DNA of 64,000 bases from Acutalibacteraceae bacterium (GCA_045648745.1 JAZROM010000078.1:6374-70373); one strand, 5' to 3'; positions 1 through 43,394 are shown, numbered from the stretch's first letter. Translations and numbers: made by a program. Notes: generated by a model from the letters alone, not told the origin.

Positions 1-3000
1 ATGGTATTGACTGCAGCACCGTTAAATGGCTTCGTGGGGCTAGAACTCCCGGAATTACTTGATTTCTCAATCTTATCAAGTGCTGCAGGTGCTACTGAGG
101 AAGAACTTGGTTTTGCTATGAACAATTATATAGCCGGAATAATTCTTAACACTAATTTAGAAAGTTGCGCTGTTTCAGACAGTGGCAAATCAATTGCCAG
201 TATGCATTTGGACTATTATACGCAACTTAATAATGTTAGTTTATCTAAATCTTTTACAGATGCATTGGAGTCCGATACAGGATTTATGTCTTCTGTCGCC
301 GCTTGGGAGACACTAACATTTAGTCCTAAGGATATTTATGAAGAATCAATAAATGAGATAGGTTATTACCAAGCGATTCTGTTTGAAATTTTAGATGTCG
401 CAGTAGATTATAACTTTGTTCCATCTATTATAAGCAATTCGAACAAGCATGTTGTATCTACACTTAAATCAATTAACGAGCTAGAGATAAAGGTTGGTGA
501 AATAACAGTTGACGGAAATACATCTTGGTCGTTGTTAGATGCTGATAAGCAACATAGAATTATACAAGCAACAGCTGGGCGAATGACGGAACTTGATATG
601 AGAAACCAATCCTTAGCGGATTTTAGTATGATTGTTAAAGCTTGCACAACAGTTACTGATTTTGTTGAAAAAGCAGCACAACTAACAGCTTTGGTGACGT
701 TAACTGAGGATGTTAAGACAATTATAGGCGAAATGTATTCCAATTGCTCCTACATCAATAATCCTAAACTAAAAACGGCCATATTGGAGATAAAAACGGC
801 AATGGAAAGCAAAATGGAGAGTGTTGGAACAATAGGATTAGAACTCTTGGCCTCTGCAGGAAAATATTCTATGGATACTTTTCTGGATATAATGTGGGGA
901 GAATGTGTGTCTGTTGTTTTGGGTTATTTAGGTGCTGGATTTCTGATAGGGCAAGTAATTGGAAGAGGAATATCAAATATATTATTTGCAACAGATGAAA
1001 CAATTGAACAGTTCTATACAATGCAAGCATTAGAAGATATTGAAACTTTATTATGCTTTAGTGTGAAAAAATTAGGTTCAAAGTTTTGTTCATCTCAATC
1101 AACAGAAGATGCGAACACATTTTTAAGATCGGTTGATCTACTTTACAATACATACAAAACAGATTTTGAATATGCTATTAAATTTTCTAAAATCATTAAT
1201 GAAAAAGGGTTATGGAATAAAGTAAAACTTTTTTGTACCGGTGGTTCTGATAATGTTGAAGAAGTAAAACGCATAGCGAATTCGATGAACAGTAGCATGG
1301 CAAGTACCTTAGGCATGTTGACTGATATTGATAGCTATTGCTTCTACCTTGAATATGACAAACCGGAAGTCTTTGAAGCATATTATGGCGGATTGACTGA
1401 CGAAGAAATGACGAATAGATATGTAGAAAAAGTTAGGCTACTTACTGTTGCATGCCCTACAGACGTTGAGATTTACAATTGGCAAGGTGATTTAGTCGTA
1501 AGCGTTGAAAACAATGAATTGTTTTTGTGTCAACCTGGCTACTACTGTGTTATTGAGGATGATATAAAGTATGTTTTAACCTCTGTTGAACAGCAGATGT
1601 CAATGAAAATCATTGGAACAGATGAAGGCAAAATGACTTATACGGTTTGCGAAGCTGATGGAGAGGGCTTCAAAAGAACGATGAGCTTTGACAATGTTAA
1701 ACTAACTGATGGTTGCGAGTTTTCAACAGCATTGCCAAAAGAAATCTTGGTTGACTCAAAGAAATACAATTTAAACACAGAAAACGGCAATGAAATTACT
1801 TGCTCTTATGATTCGGAAAATGAAAATATAGGAGGATTTCCGCCCAATCTTTTGCAAAAAGTATTGGAAGCAATAAAATATTCAAATAATGTTGTTGATA
1901 TATCGGTGTTCGAAATTCCTATGGATAAAGCAAAAGATTTAATTACTATGATAGCAACTAAACTCGAAATTGCCGGATATAGTCACTCTTTTTCTTATGA
2001 TGTTATATACGATTCACATAAAAACACTATTGCAAAACTTAATTTTAGTTTTGAAAATGCAACCGAATCAATGGAACCAACAAATTTAATAGATGCAGAA
2101 GAATATGTTTTAACTAAAATTAAAAAAAATACTGAAAGTATGAATGATTTTGATAAAGTTATATATATTCATGATTATCTCGTTCTCAATGGTGAGTATG
2201 ATTTAGAGTTGATGAATATTATTGATACAAACGGAACTCTTTCGGATGAATTAATTTCAAATCGCTATGATAAATATGCTCTTTTAGTAAATGGAACGGG
2301 TATCTGTGATACATATACGCAAGCCTATAAGTATCTTTTAGAGAATTGTGGTATTGATTGTATTACAGTATCAAGTTCCGATATGAATCATGCTTGGAAT
2401 TTAGTTGAAATCGATAATGAATGGTATCATGTCGATTGTACTTGGGACGACCCTGTTAATGATAGGGTCGGAATAACTCGTTATGATTATTTTCTTTTAA
2501 ATGATGAGGAAATCAGCAGCAAAGAACATTATTCTTGGAAGCCCACAACCATTTCAGCAACATCAAATGCTTTTTCTTCAATTCCTCGAGGTGATTCAGA
2601 TAAAATTGCATATGGCGAAGGCAAGTGGTGCTATTATTTAGGAGAGGTATTGTATTGCAGTGATATTTATGGAAAAAATCCTATTGAAATATCAGATGTA
2701 CAATTTTCGGCAATGGATATTTACAATGGTAACATATATGGAGTAAAGGACAATGTGCTATACAGAATAAACATTGAAAAACCTGAAGAAGGTTATGAGG
2801 TTGTTTGTCCTTTCTCTCAATCAGTGAAGTCTATTTATATAGATACCCATGGTGTTTTAGAGTATTATACAAAAGCTGGAAAAAGCTTTGAAACGATTAA
2901 TTTAAATAAATCCTACGAGGTAGAAGGAATTTATCTTGAAAACAATACCATAATTATTAAGAATGGAGATAGCATCCAAATTCAACCAAAGGCAATCGTT

Positions 3001-5373
3001 AACGGTTCACCAATAAATGCTTTCGACGGAAGCTTTGTCTGGGAATCTTTTGACGATGCAATTGTAACTGTCGATTCAGCTGGTGTTTTAACACCTAATT
3101 TGTCAGGAAAAACCACAATAAAAATTTCATTGGGCAAATTTAGTGTAGAATGCACGGTTATTGTAGAAAAATGGGAACATATGATTTGTGGAACACTGGC
3201 GGTAGGAACATCGTGGATGTTTGATGAAAACCAAAGCTTGCTTTACATTAAAGGAGAAGGTCTAATTCCAGATTTTGCTTCAGAAATTGAAACGCCCTGG
3301 TATAAATATAGGAATCACATTAAAAACATCAATATTTCTGATAAGATAACAAGTATTGGTTCCTACTCTTTTTCGCATTTGTCCAATATAAAAGAATTAA
3401 ACATACCTAAAAGTATAGTTGCTATTAACGAATATGCCTTGTCAGGTTGTAACAGCTTGGAAGAACTGTCAATTCCGTTTGTGGGTTTATCAAGAACTGC
3501 AAACAATACGTATGATGCCGTGTTTGGTCACATTTTCGGTCGCAGTGAGACCGGTGTCGGTCAATACCATCGCTTGGAAGACGGAAACTTGTATTATTAT
3601 ACTTATGCAATACCGGAATCGCTACGAACGGTTAGCATAACTGATGCTTCTATAATTCCATTTGGAGCTTTCCATAACTGTTCAAATATCAATAAAATAG
3701 ACATAAATGACGGTGTTGAGCAGATTGGAGCTTATAGCTTCGCAAGTTGCACCGGTCTGACAGATTTTATTGTTCCTGATACCGTTGAGTATATCGCTGA
3801 AGATTCATTTAACGGTTGTTCTTCCTTAGTTTCAATAACCCTTCCGTTTGTTGGTTCATCACGAACGGCAAATAATACATATGATTCTGTATTTGGTTAT
3901 ATTTTTGGCAGATGTGATAGTTCTACAGGAATAATTCAATATTATATGTCCGACGGAAGCAGTTTATCATATTATTATTATGATGTGCCTCAAAGCATCA
4001 AAACCGTAAAGATTACCGATGCAGATTATATCCCGTTTGGTGCATTCCATAATTGCTCGAATGTGATTGATTTTGCAGTTAATGATATATCTGTCATATA
4101 TGGTTATGCGTTCGCTAACTGTTCTGCTGTCAAGGAGATCGAAATTCCTGATAGTGTTTTGACCATTTACGAAAAAGCTTTTAACGGTTGTAATTCATTA
4201 GAAAAAATTTCGCTTCCGTTTATAGGTTCTTCTCGTGAAGCAAGCGGAACATATGATGCGGTTTTAGGTTATATCTTTGGTAGAGCGAATTCAGGAACAT
4301 TACAGTACGGCGTTGTTTCAGGAACATCTATTTCCGGATATTATTATGCAATTCCTGCAACATTAAAATCTGTCACTGTAACGGATGCTAAAAAAATTGC
4401 AGTTGGCGCATTTTGTAATTGCTCGAATTTATCGTTCTTAAGAATAAATGACGGTGTTACACAACTTTCAGATTATTCATTGATGGGTTGTTCAGGTTTG
4501 GAGGAGCTTCGATTACCATCAACATTCAAGACACTTTCAAGTGATATTTTGACGGATTGCTCTAATTTGAAAAAGCTTTATATGTATTCTCGAAGTTGTA
4601 CAATCAGCAACAGCAGTTCATGTATACCGCGTAACGCAACGATCTACGCTTACAGTAATTCTACTGCTAATAAATATGCTGACCAATATAATCGTAATTT
4701 TGTGCCTATTGATGTTGCGATTTCTGCCATGACAGATTCAGGCCTAGTTGTCGATTCGGTTAAAAAGATTATTTACGGCATTGAGTCAGGAAGCGAAGAT
4801 ATTATATCTAAGTTAGTTGTTACTGGTGAAGGTTCAGCGATAGCTAGTACAGTAGGCACAATTTCAACAGGAATAACTGTAACGCTCAAAGATATTGCAT
4901 CTATTATAACGGATGTTTATACCGTTATAATTTTCGGGGACGTTAACGGAGACTCTTGGTACGATGGTCAGGATGCGATTATCGTAGATTGTCTTGCAAA
5001 CGGTATGCTTACGAAGGAAGATGTCAGTGAGGCTGTTTATATGGCAGCAGACTGTAACCATGACGGAGTGATTGATCAACTTGATGTTGGTTTGCTCAAT
5101 CAGGCAGGTGCACTCCTTGCAAATGTAGACCAGTCCAAGTCTGCAGAAGAGCTCCTCGAAACATCATCAGCATATGTTGAGTATCTTGACCTCATCGATC
5201 AGTCTCCCGAGATTGAGGTTGAAGATGATGAAGCAACCGAGAATGAAGCAACAGAAGACGAAAGCGATGATTCAACACCTGTTGTTGAAAACAGTATTTT
5301 TGCATTCATCTCTGAATTTATTGCAATGCTTCAAAAGCTGTTCGATTTCATTTTAAGTTTTGTCAACGTTTAA
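1..5373 (+). CDS. Giant cell-surface protein, probably 5'-truncated by the window edge: helical N-region, transglutaminase-like Cys-protease core, Big_2 Ig-like domain, BspA-type LRRs, type I dockerin, acidic linker, Phe-rich C-terminal helix
   Basis: The ORF runs from base 1, and no signal peptide follows the first Met, unlike its paralog at 6232. The Cys/His/Asp core is 'GICDTYTQAY...MNHAWNLVEIDNEWYHVDCTWDDP' (approx nt 2100-2520). 'LPFVGSSRTANNTYD.VFG.IFGR' occurs three times. The dockerin is 'GDVNGDSWYDGQDA...ADCNHDGVIDQLDV' (approx nt 4920-5110). An intrinsic terminator follows. Confidence 0.85.
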   Translation: MVLTAAPLNGFVGLELPELLDFSILSSAAGATEEELGFAMNNYIAGIILNTNLESCAVSDSGKSIASMHLDYYTQLNNVSLSKSFTDALESDTGFMSSVAAWETLTFSPKDIYEESINEIGYYQAILFEILDVAVDYNFVPSIISNSNKHVVSTLKSINELEIKVGEITVDGNTSWSLLDADKQHRIIQATAGRMTELDMRNQSLADFSMIVKACTTVTDFVEKAAQLTALVTLTEDVKTIIGEMYSNCSYINNPKLKTAILEIKTAMESKMESVGTIGLELLASAGKYSMDTFLDIMWGECVSVVLGYLGAGFLIGQVIGRGISNILFATDETIEQFYTMQALEDIETLLCFSVKKLGSKFCSSQSTEDANTFLRSVDLLYNTYKTDFEYAIKFSKIINEKGLWNKVKLFCTGGSDNVEEVKRIANSMNSSMASTLGMLTDIDSYCFYLEYDKPEVFEAYYGGLTDEEMTNRYVEKVRLLTVACPTDVEIYNWQGDLVVSVENNELFLCQPGYYCVIEDDIKYVLTSVEQQMSMKIIGTDEGKMTYTVCEADGEGFKRTMSFDNVKLTDGCEFSTALPKEILVDSKKYNLNTENGNEITCSYDSENENIGGFPPNLLQKVLEAIKYSNNVVDISVFEIPMDKAKDLITMIATKLEIAGYSHSFSYDVIYDSHKNTIAKLNFSFENATESMEPTNLIDAEEYVLTKIKKNTESMNDFDKVIYIHDYLVLNGEYDLELMNIIDTNGTLSDELISNRYDKYALLVNGTGICDTYTQAYKYLLENCGIDCITVSSSDMNHAWNLVEIDNEWYHVDCTWDDPVNDRVGITRYDYFLLNDEEISSKEHYSWKPTTISATSNAFSSIPRGDSDKIAYGEGKWCYYLGEVLYCSDIYGKNPIEISDVQFSAMDIYNGNIYGVKDNVLYRINIEKPEEGYEVVCPFSQSVKSIYIDTHGVLEYYTKAGKSFETINLNKSYEVEGIYLENNTIIIKNGDSIQIQPKAIVNGSPINAFDGSFVWESFDDAIVTVDSAGVLTPNLSGKTTIKISLGKFSVECTVIVEKWEHMICGTLAVGTSWMFDENQSLLYIKGEGLIPDFASEIETPWYKYRNHIKNINISDKITSIGSYSFSHLSNIKELNIPKSIVAINEYALSGCNSLEELSIPFVGLSRTANNTYDAVFGHIFGRSETGVGQYHRLEDGNLYYYTYAIPESLRTVSITDASIIPFGAFHNCSNINKIDINDGVEQIGAYSFASCTGLTDFIVPDTVEYIAEDSFNGCSSLVSITLPFVGSSRTANNTYDSVFGYIFGRCDSSTGIIQYYMSDGSSLSYYYYDVPQSIKTVKITDADYIPFGAFHNCSNVIDFAVNDISVIYGYAFANCSAVKEIEIPDSVLTIYEKAFNGCNSLEKISLPFIGSSREASGTYDAVLGYIFGRANSGTLQYGVVSGTSISGYYYAIPATLKSVTVTDAKKIAVGAFCNCSNLSFLRINDGVTQLSDYSLMGCSGLEELRLPSTFKTLSSDILTDCSNLKKLYMYSRSCTISNSSSCIPRNATIYAYSNSTANKYADQYNRNFVPIDVAISAMTDSGLVVDSVKKIIYGIESGSEDIISKLVVTGEGSAIASTVGTISTGITVTLKDIASIITDVYTVIIFGDVNGDSWYDGQDAIIVDCLANGMLTKEDVSEAVYMAADCNHDGVIDQLDVGLLNQAGALLANVDQSKSAEELLETSSAYVEYLDLIDQSPEIEVEDDEATENEATEDESDDSTPVVENSIFAFISEFIAMLQKLFDFILSFVNV
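3466..4580 (+). repeat. Intragenic tandem super-repeat (three units of approx 369-372 nt, about 123-124 aa) within the LRR region
   Basis: The 'ccgttt(g/a)t(g/t/a)ggt' anchor encoding LPF(V/I)G recurs at nt 3475, 3844 and 4216. Each unit reads LPFVGSSR..NNTYD..FG.IFGR....YYY..IP.S(L/I)KTV.ITDA..IPFGAFHNCSN. Confidence 0.8.
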
Positions 5374-6231: not shown

Positions 6232-9200
6232 ATGAAGAAGCGAATTATCAGTATATTTTTATTAATCGTTATAGTAATGGGCGTTGCGACAACGGCTATT
6301 GTTTCGTCATTGGCATCAGACACCGAAGATGAGTTGTACGACTATGCGAAATTTGAAGTCGATTATCTTATGAATCGGGTTGAGTATAATGGTGACATAC
6401 TTAACGGTAGTGCAAATGTGTATGATATGGTTATCAAAGATGACTTTTTTAATCATGATTTTTATGAGTATTTGCAGGACCATCCTGTTTTGAGAGAAAT
6501 AACTGTTACTCAGGTTCAGTTATATGATAATGACATAAACCTTATTGCACATCCTGAACACTTTTATTCTGTTGTTTTGATGGACATTTTGCAGAGCCAG
6601 GATTTACAGGATTTAAGCAAGGATTCTCTTAAAAGTACGGTTTCATCTGATGTAGACAGAATTATACAGATGACTTTTGCAGAGGATTGTGATAATTTAA
6701 TTGATAATCTCGGGATTAAAAATGTTTCTCAGCTCAAAGCAGCAACCCTGGGTGACCTGCCTAATGAAACGATTAACAAAATTGTTGATAATATTGCTGA
6801 CGTAACTTCAGCTCATATCGGTGTCAAAGACTTATCAGGTATATTAGGCTATGCTCTGGATATATATGGCTCTGTCGAAAACGTAGTTAACAAAATTGAT
6901 TCCCTTTATGCAATTGCCGGTTACAACTTAAAGGCTATAGAAGCCTTAATGCAGATTTCTTACAGAACTGATGATCCATATCTTAAAATGGCAGCAAACG
7001 ATATCATCGGAATTTACAGTGAAATGGACTCTGCTGATGAAGTAGCAGAGATTATGTCAATTGCCGGACAGACTGCAACGGGATATGCTGTTGATAAACT
7101 GTTGTATTATTCCACTAAATTTGCAGTTGGAGCACTTTGTACGGCAGTCGGCAATGTTTTAGTGGCGTGGGATGTTGGTACATCTATTGCGAATATATGC
7201 TTTAAAGTTAATGATTTGAATACCGGATACTTTTTGGTTGAAGCTGCGACGGTTGTTGAAGATGTGTTTCGTCGATATTTATCCTCTTGCAGCGATAACT
7301 ATCTCTCAAGTGGTTCACTTATAGATGCTGAAAGGTGTCGTACTGCATATAAACTTGTTTTAACAACTCAGTATTATTCAAATGAAATAATGCGAGAGCT
7401 TGGTTACACTATTGCAAATAATGTTGCAATATGGAGCGCAATAAGATCTCTTTTTGGATGTGCTTCTTATCAGGACGTTGAAGACATCTGTAATTCAACC
7501 CGAAATATTATTGAACAAAGATACTATAACTGGGTTGCTCTTGCCCAAAAGATGTATAAAACAATTTATGGTGTGAGTTTCAGTCATGCGATCTCTTTGC
7601 AGTCAACTCCTGTAAGCAGTATTTCATTTAAGACAGGCAGTTATACACTTTTTGTTAATGAAGGTGTGTGTAACACTGCCACGGCATACCCCACAAATGC
7701 AGTTGATAGGGAAGTTTATTATTCTTCAAGTGATCCGTCTGTTGCAACAGTAAACTCATATGGCAATATAGTCGCTGTTTCTCACGGTGAAACGACAATA
7801 ACGGCATATACACTTAACGGAACAAAAGCAACATGCAAGATTACTGTTTTGCCATATAAAGTGTCTTTGATTGACGATGAGCGTTATCGTCTTGATAAGT
7901 ATATAGGTGGAGCTATTGCAGCTAATATTCCTTCCGCCTCGTCTACAGGTGTTCCTGTCACTTCAATTGCAGACAATGCATTTGAGGGATCCTCTGTTAC
8001 AAGCGTAACAATTCCTGATAGTGTTACAAGTATCGGTGATTCTGCATTCGCTTACTGTAACGGTCTTATAAGTATAGAAATTGGCGACGGAGTTACAATC
8101 ATCAGGGGTTCTGCGTTCGATTGTTGTGACAGTCTTATGGATGTATACTATACTGGTGATATATCCGGATGGTGTGCAATCAGTTTTGGCAGTCGTTCTG
8201 CTAATCCTATGTATTATGCAGAAAATGTTTATCTGGACGGCAAGCTTATTGACGGGGAAGTCATAATTCCCGACAGTGTCACAAGCATAGGTGATTATAC
8301 TTTTTCAGGCTGTACAGGTCTTAAGAGTATAAGTATTGGCAGTGGTGTTACGTATATCGGCGATTTTGCTTTTTTCGATTGTTTTAATCTTGCTTGCTTT
8401 ACTGTTGATTCTGACAATCCAACATATTTGAGTGATGAATGTGGTGTGTTGTTCAATAAGGATAAAACATATATTGTTCAATATCCTATTGATAACCCAA
8501 TAACAGCTTATGTGATTCCTGATACCGTTGTCGGTTGGGGTCAAATTGCTTTTGCCGGATGCAAAGGTATAGAGGAACTTTCGATTCCTGTTTCGGCTCC
8601 AATATACGACGATAATTATTTAAATGCCCGCGCGTTTAAAGGATGTACAGTTAAAAAGATTATCATTACAGTGGGTAATGGTACAGAAAACGAGTGGCCG
8701 AGAGTAGTACATTATGACTACACTCCGTGGTATATTACCGGGTGCTCTGAAATTGTTATAGAGGACGGTGTAAAATGTATTGATGAAGGTATGTTCCGTG
8801 AGTGCACCGAACTTATAAGTGTAACAATTGGTAACAGTGTTACACTTATCGGAATTTCTGCGTTTGAGTATTGTACAAGTCTTGTAAACATAACAATTCC
8901 TGATAGTGTCACAGAGATTGGTAGTTGTTCATTTATGGGCTGCGAAAGTCTTGAAAGTATATCGATACCTGATAGCGTAAAAGTATTAGGAGGTACTTCT
9001 TTTTATGAATGTTATAACCTTAAAAATGTTAAGCTTGGAAATGGCATAACACAAATAGAATGTGCTACTTTTGCGTATTGTCATAAACTCGAGAGTATCA
9101 TAATACCTGATAGTGTTACTTATATAGACGGAAATGCATTTCGTGATTGCACAGGTTTAAAAGAATTGACGATGCCGATATCAGCCGAATTGTACAATGA

Positions 9201-10464
9201 TTTAGAAGGTGGTATTTTGTTTACACGGTATGCCTCTTTTCAAAATTGTACAGAAATTGAAAAAATTACACTGACAAAAGGTAGTGGTAATGCACAGAAT
9301 TACTATTACCAAGGGAACCCAAATATAGTTTACTATATCAATACACCGTGGTATATAAGTGGCTGCAGTACAGTGGTAATTGAAGAAGGCGTTACTGATA
9401 TAGGTGACTATACATTTAGCCATTGCAAAGAGTTGACAAGTGTATTTATTCGAGATGGCGTCAGAACAATTGGTGAAAATGCTTTTGAGTATTGTATCGG
9501 TTTGACAGAGGTGTCACTTCCTAATACACTTATGGATGTGTATAATGGTGAGGGCATAAGGCAAAACGCATTTTATGGCTGTACCGGTCTGTCTAAAGTG
9601 TGCTTCAATGGCACCGAAGAACAATGGTGGTATACAAGTCGCTTAGGCGGAAATTCATCTTTGACTTCTGTTGCTCATTGTGTCCATAACCATTCTTTCG
9701 ATTGGGAGATTATTTCGGAACCAACCTTTACTGAAACCGGATTTAAAACAGGAATATGTACTGTTTGTGATGGTTGTACGATGTGTAATGGTGTTCAGGA
9801 GGTAGAACTTCCGGAAATAACACTTTCAAATGAAAATGTTGCAGATGTAGATTATTTGTCAAATTTTGTTTCAGGATTCGATGCAGGCTCAACATCAATA
9901 AGTGATTATTTTGCTATAACCAATGAGGGATACTCTGTTGTTTGTGATGATGAAATAATTGCTACAGGCTCGGTAATAAGACTATCCGACAGTCAAACGG
10001 TAATCAGCGAATTTACTGCTGTCATCTTTGGCGACGTCAATAGCGACGGCTGGTATGACGGTATGGATGCAGTTATTGTATCTTGCCTTGCAAACGGAAT
10101 GCTTCCGCATGACGATGTCAGCGAAGCTGTTTATATGGCTGCCGACTGCAACCACGACGGTGTAATTGATCAACTTGATGTTGATTTGCTCAATCAGGCA
10201 GGCGCGCTTCTTGCAAATGTTGACCAGTCAAAGTCTGCAGAGGTTCTTCTTGAAACATCATCAGCTTATGTGAAATATCTCGACCTCATCGATCAGTCAT
10301 TTGAGATTGACGTTGAAGACGAGGAAGATTCAACAACGCCCGACACAGAAGAAAATGTTGAAGAGACAGAACCAAGTCAGGACAATTTCTTCTCTTTCAT
10401 TCTTGATTTTGTTGAATTCTTCAAACAAATTTTCAACTTCATTCTTGAATTCATCAACAATTGA
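6232..10464 (+). CDS. Giant secreted surface protein, paralog of gene 1: signal/TM anchor, helical N-region, Big_2, long BspA-type LRR array, Cys-rich segment, type I dockerin, acidic linker, Phe-rich C-terminal helix
   Basis: The N-terminus is 'MKKRIISIFLLIVIVMGVATTAIVSSLA'. The Big_2-like segment is 'YYSSSDPSVATVNSYGNIVAVSHGETTITAY'. The 'IPDSVT.IG..AF..C..L' LRR unit occurs many times. The dockerin is 'GDVNSDGWYDGMDA...ADCNHDGVIDQLDV'. By eye, the 3' approx 300 nt are highly similar to 4920-5230. Confidence 0.9.
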   Translation: MKKRIISIFLLIVIVMGVATTAIVSSLASDTEDELYDYAKFEVDYLMNRVEYNGDILNGSANVYDMVIKDDFFNHDFYEYLQDHPVLREITVTQVQLYDNDINLIAHPEHFYSVVLMDILQSQDLQDLSKDSLKSTVSSDVDRIIQMTFAEDCDNLIDNLGIKNVSQLKAATLGDLPNETINKIVDNIADVTSAHIGVKDLSGILGYALDIYGSVENVVNKIDSLYAIAGYNLKAIEALMQISYRTDDPYLKMAANDIIGIYSEMDSADEVAEIMSIAGQTATGYAVDKLLYYSTKFAVGALCTAVGNVLVAWDVGTSIANICFKVNDLNTGYFLVEAATVVEDVFRRYLSSCSDNYLSSGSLIDAERCRTAYKLVLTTQYYSNEIMRELGYTIANNVAIWSAIRSLFGCASYQDVEDICNSTRNIIEQRYYNWVALAQKMYKTIYGVSFSHAISLQSTPVSSISFKTGSYTLFVNEGVCNTATAYPTNAVDREVYYSSSDPSVATVNSYGNIVAVSHGETTITAYTLNGTKATCKITVLPYKVSLIDDERYRLDKYIGGAIAANIPSASSTGVPVTSIADNAFEGSSVTSVTIPDSVTSIGDSAFAYCNGLISIEIGDGVTIIRGSAFDCCDSLMDVYYTGDISGWCAISFGSRSANPMYYAENVYLDGKLIDGEVIIPDSVTSIGDYTFSGCTGLKSISIGSGVTYIGDFAFFDCFNLACFTVDSDNPTYLSDECGVLFNKDKTYIVQYPIDNPITAYVIPDTVVGWGQIAFAGCKGIEELSIPVSAPIYDDNYLNARAFKGCTVKKIIITVGNGTENEWPRVVHYDYTPWYITGCSEIVIEDGVKCIDEGMFRECTELISVTIGNSVTLIGISAFEYCTSLVNITIPDSVTEIGSCSFMGCESLESISIPDSVKVLGGTSFYECYNLKNVKLGNGITQIECATFAYCHKLESIIIPDSVTYIDGNAFRDCTGLKELTMPISAELYNDLEGGILFTRYASFQNCTEIEKITLTKGSGNAQNYYYQGNPNIVYYINTPWYISGCSTVVIEEGVTDIGDYTFSHCKELTSVFIRDGVRTIGENAFEYCIGLTEVSLPNTLMDVYNGEGIRQNAFYGCTGLSKVCFNGTEEQWWYTSRLGGNSSLTSVAHCVHNHSFDWEIISEPTFTETGFKTGICTVCDGCTMCNGVQEVELPEITLSNENVADVDYLSNFVSGFDAGSTSISDYFAITNEGYSVVCDDEIIATGSVIRLSDSQTVISEFTAVIFGDVNSDGWYDGMDAVIVSCLANGMLPHDDVSEAVYMAADCNHDGVIDQLDVDLLNQAGALLANVDQSKSAEVLLETSSAYVKYLDLIDQSFEIDVEDEEDSTTPDTEENVEETEPSQDNFFSFILDFVEFFKQIFNFILEFINN

Positions 10465-17343: not shown

Positions 17344-17354
17344 GTTTATAGTTA

Positions 17355-31960: not shown

Positions 31961-34258
31961 ATGAAACACATTTTTAAAAAAGGCATCGCAATACTGCTTT
32001 CAATACTGTGTGCTTTTAACCTTGCTGTTGTGTCCTTTGCGGAGGAAACGGTGGTGACGGGCACCTGTGGTGAAAATGCAAGCTGGTCATTCAACACTGT
32101 TTCGGGGTTGTTGGTTATCAGTGGAGACGGGGAGATGAAGAGCGAATCAAATAATAATTATATGCCCTGGAATAAATATAAAGAAGAAGTCAAGGAAGTT
32201 GTAATTGAAAATGGTGTTACAACTATATGTAAAAATGCTTTTAGCGGTTGCAAAAATCTTGAAACGGTTACGATTCCAAACAGCATTATGGCTATAGATA
32301 CTTATGCTTTTTTCCATTGTGAGTCTCTTGTTGAAATAACAATTCCTGATAGCGTAGTTAGTATTGGCAACTATGCTTTTGACAATTGTGTTAGTCTTAC
32401 GATGATTTCTATAGGTAAAGGCGTTGCTGATATGAAATACACCTCGTTTCTTAGATGCAAAAGTCTTACAGATATCACGGTAGACAGCGAGAACTTGAAT
32501 TTCTCAAGTGAAGATGGTGTTTTGTATAACAAAGATAAGACAAAACTTATAAAATATCCGGTAGGAAACAGCAGAACAGCTTTTGAAATCCCCGAAGATG
32601 TTGAAGATATTGAAATCGATGCTTTTTACGGTTGTAGTTATCTGGTTAATGTTAAAATTCCGGAAGGCGTAGTGAATATTGGATTCGCTGCATTTTATAA
32701 TTGTGATAATATAACAGGCGTAACTTTGCCTAAAAGTATCAAGAGTATAGCCGAATCTGCTTTTTCAGACTGTAATGCACTTAAAGATATATACTATTCC
32801 GGTGATTTAACAAGTTGGTGTTCAAATAATTTTGAAACATTCCTTTCTCAATCAACAAACTATTATATTGACGGAGAACTTGTTTCAGGCGATTTGGTTT
32901 TACCCGAGGGTATTACATATATTGGAAGCAACGTGTTTAATCACTGTATAGGTATTACAAATGTAATAATACCGAACAGTGTTACAAGTGTTGGTGAAAG
33001 TGCTTTTCGCGACTGTATTTGGCTTAAAAAAGTCCATATTCCTGATAATGTTAATTCTGTCGGGGAGGGGTGTTTTGTTGGTTGCTACTATTTATCAGAT
33101 GTAAAATTACCTGATGCTATTGTTGAGATAAAGGATTTTACCTTTTCAAGCTGTGATAAACTCAAACAAATCACGATTCCTGAAAATGTAACGAGTATTG
33201 GCGAATATGCTTTCCAATATTGTAACGCGTTAACAAATATTACTATACCGGAAAGTGTAATTGAAATTGGAAAAGGCGCATTTAGATATTGCCCCAATCT
33301 TGCCACGACCTATTATACCGGTACTGAGGAACAATGGAATGCAGTTTCCATTGGCACCGAAAACGAACCTCTGACTCGTAATGTCGTTTTCAATTATGGT
33401 AAACCTTCCGATATCTGCGGTGAAAATGCAACGTGGGCTTTTGACGAAGCAAGCGGAGCTCTCACAATCTCAGGTACAGGGGCAGTCAGTGATTACTCCA
33501 ACTGGAACGATATTGCAAATGCAGTTGCTTATGTTGAAATAGGCAACGGTATCGCATCCGTGGGCGAAAATGCATTTAACGGATTCAGTTCACTTAAAGA
33601 AGTGTATATGGCTGAAAGTGTATCCGAGCTTGGCAACAATGCTTTTACAGGTTGTCCGAAGCTTGCAACTGTAACAGCACTTTCGGATGATTTGAGTTTC
33701 ACCAATGCCTTTTCTGGCAATGATTCACGTCTGTTTTTCGTTGCAAAAGCAGGTTCAGGAACATACACTGCCTTCAAATCGGCAGGCTTTACTGTTAACG
33801 GAATAAGCAGCGACAAGGAAAAAGACGGTCGCAAGGTGCTTTCATTCGACGGCAAAACAACCATATATCAGAAACTTGATTATAACTATATTTCAAATCT
33901 GATTGCTGACAATTCTGATACATATTATTTGTATTTCGACAAGATAACCTTTGAGGGAATAGCTCCCGATATAATTATTATTGACGAAGAAAATCTTGAC
34001 AGTGCAGAACAATATTTTACTCTTAACGAGGTTTATATCAGCGTTTCTGTTAACGGAAAAACAGTTTCTCTTCCTGAGCTTGTGCAACTGCTTCAGGATG
34101 AAGATGCCGACGGAATTATAAGCTTTGAAGAGAAGGAAGGCGAAACATTTTTTGAAATGCTTTCGGATTTCTTTGAAGAAACGGTCGGGGAATTTGTTAC
34201 ACAGGCGTTCAAGGTAATCAAAACCGTTATAAATGCAATACGCAAACTTTTTAAATAA
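31961..34258 (+). CDS. Secreted BspA-type LRR surface protein with a Phe-rich C-terminal helix
   Basis: The start was re-picked at 'MKHIFKKGIAILLSILCAFNLAVVSFAEE' (RBS gaaaggaag). The LRR unit 'IP.SV..IG..AF..C..L' occurs many times, and 'CGENA.W.F' caps occur twice. The C-terminus is 'FFEMLSDFFEETVGEFVTQAFKVIKTVINAIRKLFK'. Confidence 0.85.
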   Translation: MKHIFKKGIAILLSILCAFNLAVVSFAEETVVTGTCGENASWSFNTVSGLLVISGDGEMKSESNNNYMPWNKYKEEVKEVVIENGVTTICKNAFSGCKNLETVTIPNSIMAIDTYAFFHCESLVEITIPDSVVSIGNYAFDNCVSLTMISIGKGVADMKYTSFLRCKSLTDITVDSENLNFSSEDGVLYNKDKTKLIKYPVGNSRTAFEIPEDVEDIEIDAFYGCSYLVNVKIPEGVVNIGFAAFYNCDNITGVTLPKSIKSIAESAFSDCNALKDIYYSGDLTSWCSNNFETFLSQSTNYYIDGELVSGDLVLPEGITYIGSNVFNHCIGITNVIIPNSVTSVGESAFRDCIWLKKVHIPDNVNSVGEGCFVGCYYLSDVKLPDAIVEIKDFTFSSCDKLKQITIPENVTSIGEYAFQYCNALTNITIPESVIEIGKGAFRYCPNLATTYYTGTEEQWNAVSIGTENEPLTRNVVFNYGKPSDICGENATWAFDEASGALTISGTGAVSDYSNWNDIANAVAYVEIGNGIASVGENAFNGFSSLKEVYMAESVSELGNNAFTGCPKLATVTALSDDLSFTNAFSGNDSRLFFVAKAGSGTYTAFKSAGFTVNGISSDKEKDGRKVLSFDGKTTIYQKLDYNYISNLIADNSDTYYLYFDKITFEGIAPDIIIIDEENLDSAEQYFTLNEVYISVSVNGKTVSLPELVQLLQDEDADGIISFEEKEGETFFEMLSDFFEETVGEFVTQAFKVIKTVINAIRKLFK

Positions 34259-34483: not shown

Positions 34484-35911
34484 ATGAAAAAACTATTATC
34501 TATTTTATTGGCAATCCTTTGCGTGATGAACCTGACCGTGGTTTCATTCGCAGCGAAAGAAGTTTCGTACTTTGATGAAGAAACAGGTACTTTGTATCTG
34601 ATGACCGAGAATTGGATTGAAGATTTGGGAATCGAAGAAACAGATGAAGCATTATTAGCTTTTTGCGGAAAAGTAAAAACTGTGTATTTTGACGAGAAAT
34701 GCAATATTACTGATAATTTTAGTATCTGTATTTACTTTAATAATCTTGAAAAAATTGTAGTTGACGAAGATAGCACCGAATGGTTTGTTTACGACAATGC
34801 GCTATATTATAATGCTATTAGCGGTGATGAAGAAGTCTGTGGCTTAGCATTCTACCCGGCAAAGTGTCCAGACAAGGATATTGTTCTTCATCCGGATGCA
34901 ACACAATTCATTTTATCGGCGTTTTATGTGTATGACCCGGTGCTTTACGTTCGTCCGAATGAAAACGAGTACAACTTGTATGTTGTTGACGAAGGTCAGT
35001 TTCAAAAAATCATAAATGACAGTGCTGGTGAAGGAAATTTTTTGCATCTTAAATTTACGAATATTTATGTAAATGATACTCAGGAAAGCATAGATGCAAT
35101 CGGTGAGAATTCTCAGTACTCATTTGAAACTTATAATAAGAGATTAGAATATGAATGCTTTACAGTATATTACTTCGAATGCAATGCAGGAAATGATGAG
35201 AAATGTGATGAAATCTTGAATAGAATAGGAAAAATCGCTGATGAAGTCGAATACCCTGAGAACACGGATGACACAGCGGCTATGAGTGAATATTATGATA
35301 CACTTTATTGCAGGGTGTCGGAATACATAAACACATTAGATTATGTAGAATACACAGAAGAAGCTCATGCCTTAGCAGGAAGACCGGCTGAAGAATATGC
35401 TTATTACAAGGCAGAGATAGATTATTGTTATAACCTTTACCTTTTCTTCAAAAATCGCGGCAATCCCATTAAACCCCTCTCAATCCTCACATCAGGTATT
35501 TGCGGTGAAGGTGTAGAATGGGCAATCGACCGTGAAAACGGTGTGCTTTCAATCACAGGCAACGGAGCAATCAGCGACAATTATTCAGGCTTTGATGCTT
35601 TTAAGGGTATCGTTACAACTGTTGAAATCGGCAACGGTATCACAGCAATCGGTGAAAATGTTTTCACAGGCTTCACAGCTCTTACCGAAACAAAGTTTGA
35701 CGGTACACAGGCACAGTGGGATGCTGTTGCAGTGGCAGAAGGAAACGACGATTTGCTCAAAAATGTAACCGTAAATCCCGACCCGCCCGTTGAGCCCGAA
35801 CAGCCTGAAGAGGAACCCACCTTCTGGGATAAGGTTGTTGCTTTCTTCAACGAGGTTGCGAATTTCTTTATCAAAATTTTTGATTGGTTCAAAAATCTTT
35901 TGGGTATCTAA
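34484..35911 (+). CDS. Secreted protein with one C-terminal BspA-LRR module and a Phe-rich C-terminal helix
   Basis: The signal peptide is 'MKKLLSILLAILCVMNLTVVSFAAKE'. The LRR module is 'GICGEGVEWAIDRENGVLSITGNG...GITAIGENVFTG'. The C-terminus is 'PEEEPTFWDKVVAFFNEVANFFIKIFDWFKNLLGI'. Confidence 0.8.
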   Translation: MKKLLSILLAILCVMNLTVVSFAAKEVSYFDEETGTLYLMTENWIEDLGIEETDEALLAFCGKVKTVYFDEKCNITDNFSICIYFNNLEKIVVDEDSTEWFVYDNALYYNAISGDEEVCGLAFYPAKCPDKDIVLHPDATQFILSAFYVYDPVLYVRPNENEYNLYVVDEGQFQKIINDSAGEGNFLHLKFTNIYVNDTQESIDAIGENSQYSFETYNKRLEYECFTVYYFECNAGNDEKCDEILNRIGKIADEVEYPENTDDTAAMSEYYDTLYCRVSEYINTLDYVEYTEEAHALAGRPAEEYAYYKAEIDYCYNLYLFFKNRGNPIKPLSILTSGICGEGVEWAIDRENGVLSITGNGAISDNYSGFDAFKGIVTTVEIGNGITAIGENVFTGFTALTETKFDGTQAQWDAVAVAEGNDDLLKNVTVNPDPPVEPEQPEEEPTFWDKVVAFFNEVANFFIKIFDWFKNLLGI

Positions 35912-37273: not shown

Positions 37274-38161
37274 ATGAAAAAGTTATTATCCGTTATGTTG
37301 GCAATCTTGTGTATGATGAGCCTTACGGTTGCATCATTTGCAGCGGGGAATTTATATGATGACAGTCAGGACCTGACATGGACACTTGAAAACGGTACAC
37401 TCACAATCACAGGTGAGGGTGAAATGGCTGATAAAAACGGCGGTGAAGACTGGACACAGGGATATGCCGCTGACATAAAAAAGATTGTTATAACTGACGG
37501 TATAACACGTATTGGTAAAAATGCGTTTGGCAGAACATTGTTCTATGTATATGACCACCCAATCAATTGGAATTGTGAGAATCTTGAAGAGGTTCAGATT
37601 GCTGAAGGCGTAGAGTCAATTGGCGAAGGAGCTTTCGGCTCAGCAACATCTCTCAAAACGGTCTACATCCCATCGAGTATGAAAGAAATTGAAGTTGACG
37701 CTTTCGGTGACTGCACAGCCATTAAGGATGTTTATTTTAACGGTACTCCGGAGCAGTGGGTAGCTCTTAAACTTAAAATCGCTGACAATAATGATTATCT
37801 TGTAAATGCAGAAGTTCACTTCCCGGGTGAAGATGATGAGAATGAAAAAGTCGGTAAGGTCAACTCTGTATCGATTGGCGATATTTCAATTAATTACAAG
37901 GCTTCAGCAAAAATAGAATGTAACGTCAACGCAGATGCAGGCGTGAAGTATACTGTTAAATATTCTTCATCAAATCCTTCAGTTGCAACAGTTGACGGCA
38001 ACGGAAACGTTAAAGCAACAGGCACAGGCGACGCAACAATTACCTGTACCGTAACAGATGAATACGGCAACACCGTTTCTGATACCTGCGAAGTAAGTGT
38101 CAGCTATGCATGGTGGCAGTGGATTATTGTTATCGTTCTTTTCGGATGGATCTGGTATTAA
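37274..38161 (+). CDS. Secreted LRR plus Big_2 protein with a C-terminal hydrophobic (Trp-rich) TM anchor
   Basis: The signal peptide 'MKKLLSVMLAILCMMSLTVASFAAGN' is nearly identical to that of 34484. The Big_2 segment is 'YSSSNPSVATVDGNGNVKATGTGDATITC'. The C-terminus is 'YAWWQWIIVIVLFGWIWY'. Confidence 0.8.
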   Translation: MKKLLSVMLAILCMMSLTVASFAAGNLYDDSQDLTWTLENGTLTITGEGEMADKNGGEDWTQGYAADIKKIVITDGITRIGKNAFGRTLFYVYDHPINWNCENLEEVQIAEGVESIGEGAFGSATSLKTVYIPSSMKEIEVDAFGDCTAIKDVYFNGTPEQWVALKLKIADNNDYLVNAEVHFPGEDDENEKVGKVNSVSIGDISINYKASAKIECNVNADAGVKYTVKYSSSNPSVATVDGNGNVKATGTGDATITCTVTDEYGNTVSDTCEVSVSYAWWQWIIVIVLFGWIWY

Positions 38162-42932: not shown

Positions 42933-43039
42933 CTTGCTTTTTGATATTTTCGGCAATATCGGAACACTTGACAAAAAAACAGAAGATGTTATAATACGTC
43001 CAATAGAATATCGATATAAGAAGATACGGTTTGAACAGT

Positions 43040-43255
43040 TGTAAACTTAGTAGATTGAAAGGGAAATCCGGTTCAAGTCCGGAGCAACCGCCATTACTGT
43101 ATGTGATGAAGGGCAATTTGGCATAATAGGAAGTTGTCGTATCACAAGTCAGAACACCTGCCGTATTTTTCAGGTTTAACACAACTTTGGTGAGAAGAGT
43201 GCAACCGATTTATCGCAGTATGGTAAATTTCGGATTGCCCTCTTTTTTGTTTTTA
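43040..43255 (+). promoter_or_regulatory. Cobalamin (B12) riboswitch number 1 with a terminator-type expression platform
   Basis: The sequence shows 'aaagggaa', 'ccggttcaagtccgg', 'gcaaccgccattactgt' and the B12 box 'agtcagaacacctgcc'. The downstream hairpin agagtgcaaccga...tcggattgccctct is followed by tttttgttttt (43196-43255). A second hairpin plus T-run lies at about 43302-43336. Confidence 0.85.
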
Positions 43256-43394
43256 TTGCAGTCCGAAGTCACTCTTGCTGAACCGCGTTTAATCTGTTGT
43301 ACTCTTTTGACCTTTTTGGTTGAAAGGGTATTTTTTATTCAAAATCAGTGGCCACTGTTTTGATAAATTTTTAAAAGTTAAAGGAGTTTTTAAA

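Follow-up and report, generated by a model that had tools for sequence, protein, structure and literature searches.

RESULTS

Five genes whose products end in a helical tail

The window, a 64,000-nucleotide stretch of DNA from an Acutalibacteraceae bacterium, carries five genes on the + strand whose products had been proposed, in a sequence-only reading, to share one kind of C-terminal tail. Each of the five proposed tail peptides was recovered exactly by translation, and in all five carriers a stop codon directly follows the tail. The carrier 1 gene (1..5373), the 5' end of which lies beyond the window start, encodes a transglutaminase-like core, Big_2, LRR_5, a dockerin (4936..5103, residues 1646-1701), an acidic linker, SPEIEVEDDEATENEATEDESDDSTPVV (5203..5286, by translation), and a type A tail, ENSIFAFISEFIAMLQKLFDFILSFVNV (5287..5370), which makes up the final 28 residues. 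The carrier 2 gene (6232..10464) encodes a signal-peptide-like N terminus, Big_2, LRR_5, a dockerin (10030-10197), a linker (10297-10380), and a second type A tail, DNFFSFILDFVEFFKQIFNFILEFINN (10381..10461). These two proteins are paralogues that have the dockerin, spacer, linker, and tail in common, and they were counted as one independent case.

Carrier 3 is an LRR_5 protein (31961..34258; alternative ORF starts at 31907 and 31961) that likely begins at MKHIFKK, which would yield a signal peptide, and its orthologues are present in loci L077, L089, and L114. Its type C tail, ETFFEMLSDFFEETVGEFVTQAFKVIKTVINAIRKLFK (34142..34255), is acidic in the first half and basic in the second and is kept in P0014, P0020-P0030, P0061-P0063, P0065, and P0067. 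Carrier 4 (34484..35911) has no Pfam domain and consists of a signal peptide, MKKLLSILLAILCVMNLTVVSFA, a passenger, a Pro/Glu linker that is predicted to be disordered, NPDPPVEPEQPEEE (35774..35815), and a type B tail, PTFWDKVVAFFNEVANFFIKIFDWFKNLLGI (35816..35908). The carrier 5 gene (43392..44165) is preceded, as the sequence-only reading had recognized, by a cobalamin riboswitch (43010..43179, + strand; Rfam RF00174, 49.8 bits), adjoins a gene for a membrane DUF4430 protein, and lies near an ECF-type transporter operon; its product has a signal peptide, a beta-rich Ig-like passenger, an invariant VPPVC, and a type D tail, NGFFETVFNAIVSFFENVINFFVSLFA (44082..44162). A C-terminal tail of another kind, Trp-rich and hydrophobic (SYAWWQWIIVIVLFGWIWY, 38102..38158, + strand), is found on an LRR_5 and Big_2 protein (37274-38161).

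Signal-peptide-like N termini were detected by a heuristic, rather than by SignalP, in carriers 2 to 5 (the N terminus of carrier 1 is outside the window) and in all relatives with intact N termini, which upholds the proposed tie between the tails and signal-peptide proteins. Many carriers have a near-identical, family-specific signal peptide (MKKLLSILLAILCVMNLTVVSFA). Linker length across the carriers varies from approximately 6 to 30 residues. The proposal that all five proteins have the same ending, with an acidic or Pro-rich linker, held for the terminal amphipathic helix but not for the linker of carrier 5, in which only about 6 residues separate the folded domain from the helix and no acidic/Pro-rich stretch is present, nor for the tails themselves, which are of four types. 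The near-absent linker of carrier 5 makes sense if this binder is held at the membrane.

Amphipathic character and strict C-terminal position

The tails are strictly C-terminal helices of 24 to 38 residues with a best periodicity of 96 to 102 degrees. Whole-tail hydrophobic moments were 0.40 to 0.56 across the five tails and exceeded those of composition-matched shuffles (z of 3.5 to 4.4), with no more than 3 of 2000 shuffles reaching as high a value. The carrier 1 tail, for which no transmembrane (TM) call was made, had a moment of 0.43 (z of 3.5) and the carrier 2 tail a moment of 0.55 (z of 4.0). These moments are within the range of the control sequences, the E. coli PBP5 anchor, PSM-alpha3, and delta-toxin. 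The 20-residue PBP5 tail is aromatic-rich and similar in appearance to the window tails. In AlphaFold2 models, the C termini of carriers 4 and 5 each form a single, unbroken terminal helix (residues 447-473 and 232-255, respectively), and the carrier 4 linker has a pLDDT of <50 at residues 436-444. As modeled, the layout of both proteins is a folded passenger, a low-confidence linker, and a free terminal helix.

The frequency of such endings was assessed by counting ORFs whose final 25 residues include at least 5 F/W/Y and whose moment is 0.38 or higher. This combination was found in 4 of the 44 window ORFs of at least 150 amino acids, in 6 of 22 from related loci, and in only 3 of 555 from 113 unrelated 8-kb loci (Fisher p = 7.6e-4, window versus unrelated loci); the type C tail, with fewer aromatics at its extreme C terminus, falls below the aromatic cutoff. 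Strict C-terminal position was also evident in database searches, since 17 of the 19 significant matches among 1.84 billion representative proteins, and 14 of 14 local matches of >20 bits, ended within 6 residues of the C terminus.

Hydrophobicity of the tails

The tails had been described as too amphipathic and charged for a plain TM anchor, and our measurements agree. The five window tails contain from 2 to 10 charged residues, none reached the Kyte-Doolittle threshold of 1.6, and their best 19-mers sum to +6 to +11 kcal/mol on the Hessa scale, compared to +0.9 for the TM segment of the protein A sorting signal used as a control. Tails of types A and D finish in -NV, -NN, or -FA, without K/R, and the -LLGI form of type B has no positively charged residues after the helix; type C has a K/R-rich end, yet it is the most polar helix.

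For type D, 110 unique orthologous tails were compared. Within these, large hydrophobic residues make up 90% or more of each of 14 columns, out of approximately 24 in the helix, and these columns alternate with Ser/Thr/Asn/Ala columns at a periodicity of 99 degrees; a K/R end occurs in 15 tails, and 57 have no charged residue in the final 25. Where charges are present, almost all are in the polar columns, and that face must therefore tolerate water. The type D consensus, GGIFASVLSAITSFFSAIINFILSIFA, is uncharged, and its Hessa sum, a hand estimate rather than tool output, is about +1.7 kcal/mol, which is borderline for a TM segment. The borderline consensus and the many uncharged type D tails would be compatible with ordinary C-terminal TM anchors of type I topology, perhaps in small oligomers with the polar stripe inward; a helix of this length could span the bilayer, and C-terminal TM helices have already been proposed as cohesin scaffoldin anchors (PMC11557425). 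We nonetheless consider this unlikely, given the charges, Hessa sums, and Kyte-Doolittle values of the window tails, the lack in most tails of the basic stop-transfer cluster that is present in the homologues P0190 and P0191, and the placement of nearly all type D charges in polar columns, which fits a water-exposed face.

Sequence types, passengers, and dockerins

The five tails make up four sequence types, A to D, and leave-one-type-out profiles failed to detect the other types. Judged by sequence, the types are not demonstrably homologous, and what they have in common appears to be physicochemical. No Pfam or NCBIfam model matched any tail, and among the sorting-domain NCBIfam/TIGRFAM models none matched at E <= 0.1 with full carriers or at E <= 10 with isolated tails. 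For orthologues of carriers 4 and 5, newer precomputed Pfam annotation was mostly "-", the sole entries being three carboxypeptidase-regulatory-like matches (PF13715, PF13620), a family that also matches the carrier 5 passenger at residues 176-214. The tail profile also matched amphipathic Trp/Phe repeats in P0071, which we read as a phage tape-measure-like protein.

The sole recurring feature of the tails was a helix start of the form Thr/Ser/Asn-x-x-Glu/Asp, which we read as a helix cap and not as a site of cleavage. Types B and C have a recurring E-P-T-F/[FW]-[DE] start. An invariant Trp and an N-L motif were found in the tails of the carrier 4 orthologues (n=13). For the dockerin-linked tail, 18 metagenomic relatives had a mean ungapped identity of 26%; many of these are Lys-rich, with a net charge of +1 to +4, and Phe-richness is not kept. 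All 23 of the 23 tails tested nevertheless beat their own shuffles (z of 2.1 to 5.6). Such drift in sequence with amphipathicity kept fits selection acting on lipid binding and not on a motif that some enzyme or receptor would recognize.

The tails are carried by unrelated proteins, as had been stated, and these relatives are from Acutalibacteraceae or Clostridia metagenome-assembled genomes (MAGs). The type B tail is on at least four unrelated passengers (found on P0015, P0017, P0016/18/19, P0064, P0066, and L014), and the dockerin-linked tails related to type A follow subtilase, LRR, PHP, and phosphoesterase passengers, with the sequence unconserved and amphipathicity kept. The idea of a portable module holds for two cases, type B and the dockerin-linked kind, but not for a single module shared by all types.

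Dockerins (Pfam Dockerin_1, PF00404; gathering cutoff of 22.9 bits) lie before the tail in carriers 1 and 2, in line with the two dockerin-bearing carriers noted previously. The carrier 2 dockerin scored 26.0 bits, and that of carrier 1 scored 20.8 bits, under the cutoff, and is a clear, near-identical paralogue of the former. Dockerin_1 was also found just 5' of the tail in L110 and in 8 of the 9 metagenomic relatives scanned; L122 had no dockerin match at E <= 1e-4. A conserved segment of approximately 35 residues (DQSK...LIDQS) lies between the dockerin and the linker and helix.

Other anchors at the tail position and the search for processing enzymes

Two homologues of carrier 5 show identities to it of 56% (P0190) and 55% (P0191), and their alignment with it extends as far as the invariant VPPVC. 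From there on, both proteins continue with an acidic/Pro linker, and the place of the carrier 5 helix is taken by a hydrophobic span plus KKK or KKR. In P0191, which has KKR, the span is preceded by SPDTG, and the protein matches the C-terminal part of an LPXTG-protein model (E = 1e-4), with a near-threshold TIGR01167 score of 13.8 bits versus a cutoff of 15.9; P0190 is the looser case of the two. Likewise, the positional homologue in L089 of the protein with the Trp-rich hydrophobic tail (37274-38161) ends in an amphipathic helix. By these alignments, the tail position is taken by other surface anchors in homologues. This swap shows no more than that some element at that position holds the protein on the cell; it does not single out the membrane as the target.

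The sequence-only reading had likened the tails to LPXTG, PEP-CTERM, and the type IX secretion system (T9SS) C-terminal domain, and this analogy was not supported: those signals are recognized and cleaved by enzymes, whereas the tails contained no conserved cleavage or recognition motif and the window genes scanned included no sortase, exosortase, rhombosortase, or other processing enzyme. Its observation that LPXTG is missing was correct, in that a loose regular expression found no LPXTG-like pentapeptide near any carrier C terminus, and TIGR01167 matched neither the five carriers nor the isolated tails. We regard it as very unlikely that a dedicated enzyme recognizes the tails as true sorting signals and cleaves or transfers them in the style of LPXTG/sortase, PEP-CTERM/exosortase, or GlyGly-CTERM/rhombosortase. 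Such signals would be strictly C-terminal on signal-peptide proteins and portable across passengers, as the tails are, and the recurring start in types B and C and the near-identical signal peptide on many carriers, which recalls YSIRK/LPXTG pairing, also point that way. Set against this are the lack of a tripartite signal (motif, TM segment, and basic cluster), of a matching sorting-domain model, of sequence conservation across types, and of a candidate enzyme among the window genes scanned, together with the caplike character of the recurring start.

The tails might instead be released as membrane-active peptides, in the style of the phenol-soluble modulins (PSMs) and delta-toxin, against competitors or host cells, with the passengers serving as carriers or prodomains. 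Their moment, length, and composition are like those of PSM-alpha3 and delta-toxin, but no conserved protease site was found in the tails, the passengers consist of large, conserved domains that look functional, and homologues have anchors at the tail position; we consider release extremely improbable.

A candidate noncovalent membrane anchor

The reading that we favor, with slightly better than even confidence, is that the tails act as noncovalent membrane anchors, by analogy with the E. coli PBP5 anchor, rather than as an enzyme-processed signal. The main support for this reading is the presence of other anchors at the tail position in homologues, joined by the column pattern of type D, the persistence of amphipathicity as sequence drifts, the polarity of the tails relative to translocon TM segments, the strict terminal position, the modeled architecture, the genomic context of carrier 5, and the PBP5 precedent. 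Carriers would be exported via Sec, using the N-terminal signal peptide, and the folded passenger would come to lie outside the cell. In the amphipathic helix formed by the final 24 to 38 residues, a wide face of Phe/Ile/Leu/Val would be buried in the outer leaflet of the cytoplasmic membrane, and a narrow face of Ser/Thr/Asn/Asp/Glu/Lys would stay at the level of the head groups and water. We infer that the tail binds the membrane and stays on the mature protein, and likewise the orientation of the helix, for which an in-plane or oblique arrangement is favored. The distance of the passenger from the membrane would be set by the linker, a disordered stretch of variable length (about 6 to 30 residues) that is acidic or Pro/Thr-rich, and retention on the cell would involve neither sortase, lipidation, nor a classical stop-transfer TM segment.

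Several observations do not sit easily with membrane anchoring. Several window tails are net acidic (-3 for carrier 2 and -2 for type D), and helices known to bind the lipids of anionic bacterial membranes are as a rule cationic. In types A and B, hydrophobic residues occupy 4 of 7 heptad positions with a periodicity of about 102 degrees, which also fits helical bundles. With a dockerin already present in carriers 1 and 2, a second attachment looks redundant, and linkers of 6 to 30 residues may be too short to cross a thick Gram-positive wall. The first two points would suit tails that are protein-protein association helices, either bundling as homo- or hetero-oligomers or docking on a dedicated surface receptor, which would give multivalent adhesin or enzyme clusters and a second assembly code beside cohesin-dockerin. 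The sequence conservation of type B across unrelated passengers, including the invariant Trp and N-L motif of the carrier 4 orthologues, could reflect a specific partner. Also in favor of association, a protein with a Zn-ribbon, a TM segment, and an extracellular domain (35970-37193) is conserved beside the carriers in L089 and L114. The P0071 repeats matched by the tail profile are of a tape-measure-like class that packs helix against helix. We find association doubtful all the same: a receptor common to all tails is hard to reconcile with the lack of sequence conservation between types or among the dockerin-linked relatives, most type D orthologue helices are uncharged, Ser-lined, and almost TM-like, and homologues have a hydrophobic-span-plus-basic-tail signal in place of the tail. 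A broader version, which we think quite unlikely, is a lineage-specific Clostridia assembly or sorting code paired with the family signal peptide (MKKLLSILLAILCVMNLTVVSFA), receptor-read or self-bundling, that would form a display system parallel to cohesin-dockerin and sometimes on the same proteins.

DISCUSSION

In this uncultured gut Clostridia bacterium, several proteins exported to the surface end in a short helix with one oily and one polar face, which most likely pins them to the cell membrane. The hosts are uncultured gut or rumen Clostridia known from Acutalibacteraceae-type MAGs, and it is probably through large proteins with LRRs, dockerins, or enzymes that they contact fiber, the host, and neighboring cells. 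If the tails are membrane anchors, proteins that a hydropathy threshold leaves unflagged, and that are perhaps annotated as secreted, would be cell bound, which would change the reading of surface proteomes and of cellulosome-like dockerin systems, in which a membrane-tethered dockerin protein could be an anchor point rather than cargo. They would also provide monoderms with a route that uses neither sortase nor lipid modification and that no Pfam or NCBIfam model covers, and for surface display in anaerobes a short portable tail would be a practical tool.

Comparison with known systems

Like the LPXTG or (S/P)PXTG signals of sortases, the tails are portable C-terminal elements on signal-peptide surface proteins after a Pro/acidic linker; unlike them, the window tails have no motif, hydrophobic span, or basic tail. 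The PEP-CTERM and GlyGly-CTERM combination of signature motif, TM segment, and Arg-rich cluster was not detected by NCBIfam/TIGRFAM models. The T9SS C-terminal domain is a beta-sandwich of approximately 80 to 100 residues in Bacteroidota, whereas each tail is a single helix of 24 to 38 residues with Clostridia/Acutalibacteraceae relatives. The likeness to PSMs and delta-toxin, in length, helicity, moment, and Phe/Lys/Asn-rich composition, is compositional only; those are free, unprocessed, formylated peptides with a dedicated ABC transporter, whereas the helix here ends a large Sec-exported protein. Dockerins are normally the C-terminal module but are followed here by the segment of about 35 residues, the linker, and the amphipathic helix, an order for which we found no description in the literature searched.

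C-terminal hydrophobic-tail anchoring is a recognized class of Gram-positive surface proteins, exemplified by Listeria ActA, that combines a signal peptide with C-terminal membrane retention and no covalent wall link (PMC4010754, PMC2375117). The carriers resemble this class, and P0190 and P0191 have its span and basic tail at the tail position. The class uses a span with a positively charged stop-transfer, for which the window tails are too polar and, in most cases, lack the basic end. The uncharged span of approximately 20 residues of a type I TM anchor is absent from the five window tails and borderline in the uncharged type D consensus.

A close parallel is the exported low-molecular-weight penicillin-binding protein PBP5 of E. 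coli, which is anchored by a C-terminal amphipathic helix to the outer side of the inner membrane (PMC2909392). The sequence-only reading knew of no described equivalent of the tails, a statement that is not borne out in view of PBP5-type anchors (PMC2909392) and the hydrophobic-tail class (PMC4010754, PMC2375117). Two features of the PBP5-like class, which is a functional rather than a sequence family, were found here, namely, a Sec signal peptide and a strictly C-terminal amphipathic alpha-helix. As in PBP5/DacA and PBP6, the pattern is that of Sec export with a cleaved signal peptide and a terminal amphipathic helix (approximately 18 residues in PBP5) in place of a classical span (PMC2909392), and the hydrophobic moment is similar. 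The tails differ in being longer (24 to 38 residues), often acidic or neutral rather than basic, and placed behind disordered linkers, in ending many unrelated adhesin-like and enzyme passengers rather than one enzyme family, and in belonging to a monoderm Clostridia lineage; no sequence homology is claimed. No new principle is involved, because PBP5-type anchors have long been known, and the tails would be an unannotated variant of a known way to hold exported proteins on the cell.

Exported proteins ending in an amphipathic helix

The five tail peptides listed by the sequence-only reading were identical to our translations, with a stop codon directly after each. The proteins bearing them (carriers 1 to 5) are all encoded on the plus strand, and their tails were assigned to four sequence types, A to D. 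Carrier 1 (1-5373, its 5' end cut by the window; tail type A) contains a transglutaminase-like core, Big_2, LRR_5 and a dockerin; carrier 2 (6232-10464; type A) contains Big_2, LRR_5 and a dockerin; carrier 3 (31961-34258; type C) contains LRR_5; carrier 4 (34484-35911; type B) has no Pfam domain; and carrier 5 (43392-44165; type D) gave only weak carboxypeptidase-regulatory-like matches. The Pfam domain scan bore out the dockerins reported on two carriers, and, as had been claimed, no LPXTG-like motif was found near any carrier C-terminus. Signal-peptide-like N-termini were found on carriers 2 to 5 by a simple heuristic, the N-terminus of carrier 1 lying outside the window.

The tails had a helical periodicity of 96-102 degrees and whole-tail helical hydrophobic moments of 0.40-0.56, higher than those of composition-matched shuffles (z 3.5-4.4). 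When all window ORFs were ranked by aromatics in their last 25 residues, four of the five tails were within the top six, the remaining two being short, spurious-looking ORFs (81-103 aa); the type C tail, with three aromatics in these residues, ranked lower yet had the highest moment. A criterion of at least five F/W/Y in the last 25 residues and a moment of at least 0.38 was passed by 4 of 44 long window ORFs, 6 of 22 in related loci and 3 of 555 in 113 unrelated loci (window versus unrelated loci, Fisher p = 7.6e-4). For carriers 5 and 4, AlphaFold2 predicted a confident folded passenger (the protein ahead of linker and tail) followed by one terminal helix, with an intervening linker of pLDDT <50 in the carrier 4 model. 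The original observation of the tails stands.

Upstream of its LRR region, carrier 1 has a transglutaminase-like cysteine protease core (residues 670-847; window 2008-2541) that matches Pfam Transglut_core and an NCBIfam MAG6410-family lipoprotein region (E = 4e-23). Because of this core, the giant carrier 1 may be an enzyme as well as an adhesin.

Four tail types with one design

By eye, the four types have the pattern [TN]-F-[FW]-x-x-[VIL]-x-x-F-F... in common, and their MAFFT alignment was plausible. Carriers 1 and 2 are paralogous across dockerin, conserved spacer, acidic linker and tail and therefore count as one independent case. Leave-one-type-out profiles were scored on every stop-to-stop segment in the window and in 118 loci, and a held-out type never rose above background (at most 19 bits), in a test that is conservative because this background was enriched for look-alikes by our own DNA pattern. 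On sequence grounds, common ancestry of types A to D is not demonstrable. The single shared module proposed earlier gives way to four types, and a single origin or family for all five tails was dropped, the held-out scores lying within noise. The types have their physico-chemical design in common: all are amphipathic helices of 24-38 residues that stand strictly at the C-terminus of an exported protein.

No tail was covered by a Pfam or NCBIfam model when full proteins or isolated tails (E <= 10) were searched; the match to a described sorting domain that would have refuted the sequence-only reading did not turn up. A weak NCBIfam match of the tails to PorH porin (E 0.04-0.07) was treated as compositional. 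Precomputed annotations of carrier 4 and 5 orthologues, made with a newer Pfam release, were mostly empty; the sole entries were three carboxypeptidase-regulatory-like matches, a family that also matches the carrier 5 passenger. The tails lack the defining features of the LPXTG family, of PEP-CTERM-like families and of the T9SS C-terminal-domain family and so are members of none of them, and the likening of the tail to these signals was given up. The window genes scanned included no sortase or other processing enzyme, and the tail sequences drift; on both counts it is highly improbable that the tail is a sorting signal processed by an enzyme.

Tails linked to a dockerin

Scanning metagenomes with the C-terminal 155 residues of carrier 2 yielded 20 loci, 18 of which encode, in order, a dockerin, a conserved DQSK...LIDQS segment, an acidic/Pro linker and a strictly terminal amphipathic helix. 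The passengers of these relatives include subtilase, LRR_5 + GLUG, LRR_5 + Big_2 and a PHP domain, several being without a Pfam domain, and a locus from the genome scan (L110) added a metallophosphoesterase. Mean ungapped identity among the helices was only 26%, and every helix had a moment greater than its own shuffles. Many have few aromatics and are Lys-rich, with a net charge of +1 to +4. The Phe-richness by which the tail was first described therefore belongs to this genome's copies and their close relatives, not to the class. Such drift with amphipathicity kept speaks for selection on a bulk property, e.g., lipid binding, and against a motif that an enzyme or receptor would recognise. 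The Thr/Ser/Asn-x-x-Asp/Glu that recurs where the helix begins looks like a helix cap.

The segment of about 35 residues between dockerin and linker (..NVDQSKSAEELLETSSAYVEYLDLIDQS; window 5104-5202 and 10198-10296) is kept in metagenomic relatives of this dockerin subtype (L119-L136; DQSK...LIDQ), and domain scans of carriers and relatives found no Pfam family for it.

Spread of the tails

The carrier 4 orthologues at 46-85% identity have all kept the type B tail, which also ends unrelated proteins, namely the LRR_5 proteins P0015 and P0017 and a 379-380-residue family (P0016, P0018 and P0019). An exhaustive profile search of 1.84 billion representative proteins (E <= 1e-3) gave 19 matches only, 17 of them at most 6 residues from the C-terminus, and added the passengers of P0064, P0066, P0069 and P0070; the count is a lower bound because types A and D reach only 21-24 bits with this profile. 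The two internal matches were P0068 (168 aa), a short repeat ORF, and P0071 (962 aa), which has repeated Trp/Phe amphipathic units (e.g., TVWDKVTGFFKAVGGAIADAF) and looks like a phage tape-measure-like protein; the resemblance is a compositional and structural likeness to amphipathic repeats. A word-indexed protein search with the tail alignment found words common to the query in one candidate only, and looking up carrier 4 by exact sequence among public contigs gave no record.

The degenerate DNA pattern FF[NE]x[VI]x[ND]FF[IV]x[ILV][FY], scanned against 185,579 species genomes, matched at least 118 stretches. Among the matches listed, 113 were due to chance, most in non-coding frames of AT-rich genomes and three inside long ORFs, and five were true tails, all ending long ORFs of Acutalibacteraceae or 'Clostridia bacterium' MAGs, two of them from ruminant gut samples. 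Chance matches had been underestimated for this pattern, which leaves the taxonomic spread under-sampled. The type C tail was always accompanied by a conserved upstream domain of its own (roughly 200-300 residues), and L077, L089 and L114 have the gene order of the window, a type C carrier immediately followed by a type B carrier. The type D tail was found, among the 120 homologues listed, on the carrier 5 passenger only. The portability claimed for the tail is well supported for type B and the dockerin-linked kind, which occur on unrelated passengers.

P0070 (L139 4001-4855; GCA_041692815.1, contig JACGJH010006837.1) is an Asn-x-Thr/Ser-rich protein with a poly-Gly linker and then a type B-like tail (..ISSFFTGVGDFFTSVIDWFKNLFS). 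Its contig has 32% GC, its other genes being almost without Pfam matches. Tails like type B may, from this protein, be present beyond Acutalibacteraceae.

Replacement of the tail and its likely function

Two relatives of carrier 5, P0190 and P0191 (56% and 55% identical), align with it through an invariant VPPVC, which is followed in them by an acidic/Pro linker, a hydrophobic span and then KKK or KKR. P0191 has SPDTG ahead of the span, matches the C-terminal part of an LPXTG-protein model and falls just below the TIGR01167 cut-off; we take its signal to resemble the (S/P)PXTG signals of clostridial sortases. In P0190, AAKTGD stands at this place and is a possible degenerate sorting signal. 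Likewise, the window ORF 37274-38161 has a Trp-rich, hydrophobic end, and its positional homologue in L089 ends in another amphipathic helix. Replacement at the same position is the most informative result on tail function: since homologues have other anchors there, the tail would fill the slot of a surface-retention element.

Such an element could be an ordinary spanning transmembrane (TM) helix, perhaps oligomeric, a reading that we consider quite unlikely. On the Hessa scale, the window tails score +6 to +11 kcal/mol, compared to +0.9 for the protein A TM control, and none passed the Kyte-Doolittle TM threshold, in agreement with the earlier judgment that they are too amphipathic and charged for a plain TM anchor. 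In 110 unique type D tails, 14 of about 24 helix columns have large hydrophobic residues in at least 90% of cases and alternate with Ser/Thr/Asn/Ala columns at 99 degrees. Half of these tails have no charge at all, and almost all Asp/Glu/Arg are within the polar columns, so one helix face tolerates water, which would not fit a lone helix spanning lipid.

We lean toward reading the tails as non-covalent membrane anchors of the kind found in PBP5, an E. coli low-molecular-weight penicillin-binding protein, with the helix lying in-plane or oblique. Several features speak against direct anchoring in lipid. A net negative charge is present on some of the window tails, the type B sequence is conserved across passengers, and a membrane anchor next to a dockerin seems superfluous, unless it is the tethered dockerin that provides the attachment point. 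In addition, the heptad-like pattern of types A and B also suits helical bundles, as it would if the helices served protein-protein association, bundling or docking to a receptor; we judge this explanation unlikely. That the helices are released as membrane-active peptides is scarcely credible.

The context of carrier 5 fits the membrane anchor reading: its gene follows a B12 riboswitch, with a membrane DUF4430 protein as its neighbour and an ECF-type transporter operon not far away, and the protein has almost no linker. The cobalamin riboswitch reported 5' of carrier 5 proved real (43010-43179) and precedes carrier 5 and the DUF4430 protein (genes 43392-45878), the latter having weak prenyltransferase-like matches and two predicted TM segments. 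A second (45900-46032) precedes CbiQ and a single 880-aa ORF in which two ABC ATPase domains are fused to an ECF S-component (genes 46429-49934). A Foldseek comparison of the carrier 5 model with PDB structures gave generic Ig-like matches only (TM-score <=0.27), a result neutral on B12 binding.

Other features of the surface locus

A near-identical signal peptide, MKKLLSILLAILCVMNLTVVSFAAE, was found on proteins with unrelated passengers and different tail types (window 34484-34555, 37274-37345 and 31961-32040; P0015-P0019; L089 6692-7465), the type C version being MKHIFKKGIAILL..NL.VVSFAEE. It seems that these surface proteins retain, or swap, each of their two ends as a cassette. The LRR_5+Big_2 protein at 37274-38161 has its Trp-rich tail at 38102-38158 (SYAWWQWIIVIVLFGWIWY, no charged residues), and a 678-aa protein in L110 (3429-5477) has the same tail. 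An orthologue, P0036, has the precomputed Pfam entry PF26918.1, which is absent from our local Pfam copy. The protein at 35970-37193 has a zinc ribbon at its N-terminus, a single TM segment and, without a Pfam match, an extracellular domain about 340 residues long; its position right after the type C and B carrier genes is conserved (L089 5294-6610; L114 7462-8001), and it is a candidate partner of the carriers.

A GHKL histidine kinase and LytTR response regulator (39196-41258, minus strand) are 92-97% identical in L077, where carrier 3 has a counterpart of only 55% and carrier 4 one of only 46% identity; divergence is thus far more rapid in the surface proteins than in the regulators next to them. 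At 11456-25088 (minus strand) are two Ser/Thr kinases, one with MORN repeats, two PP2C phosphatases, a PBP transpeptidase, FtsW/RodA and two FHA proteins, a block of Clostridia genes that we take to resemble the fhaA-fhaB-pstP-rodA-pbpA-pknA-pknB cluster of actinobacteria. Between this block and the carrier 3 gene, a 1029-aa Lon-like protease (26890-29982, minus strand) matches AAA+ in two distinct regions and has a Lon S16 domain at its C-terminus.

Comparison with known anchors

Literature searches for amphipathic C-terminal anchors on Gram-positive surface proteins gave general classes only, and a search for a dockerin followed by a C-terminal helix likewise turned up nothing on this tail. 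Pneumococcal DacA/PBP3 was set aside as a monoderm precedent, since the text found on it describes an N-terminal helix. PBP5 is exported and tethered by a C-terminal amphipathic helix to the outer face of the inner membrane (PMC2909392), a C-terminal hydrophobic-tail class of Gram-positive surface proteins is described (PMC4010754, PMC2375117), and C-terminal TM helices have been proposed as anchors of cohesin scaffoldins (PMC11557425). The first two are predicted to be closest to the tails in function. The tails introduce no new principle and are of use in annotation and in understanding how these bacteria display proteins on their surface. What is new, besides the lack of a curated model, is the conserved composite of dockerin, spacer, linker and helix, and the fact that an uncultured gut Clostridia lineage uses such helices time and again to end many unrelated passengers, both adhesin-like proteins and enzymes.
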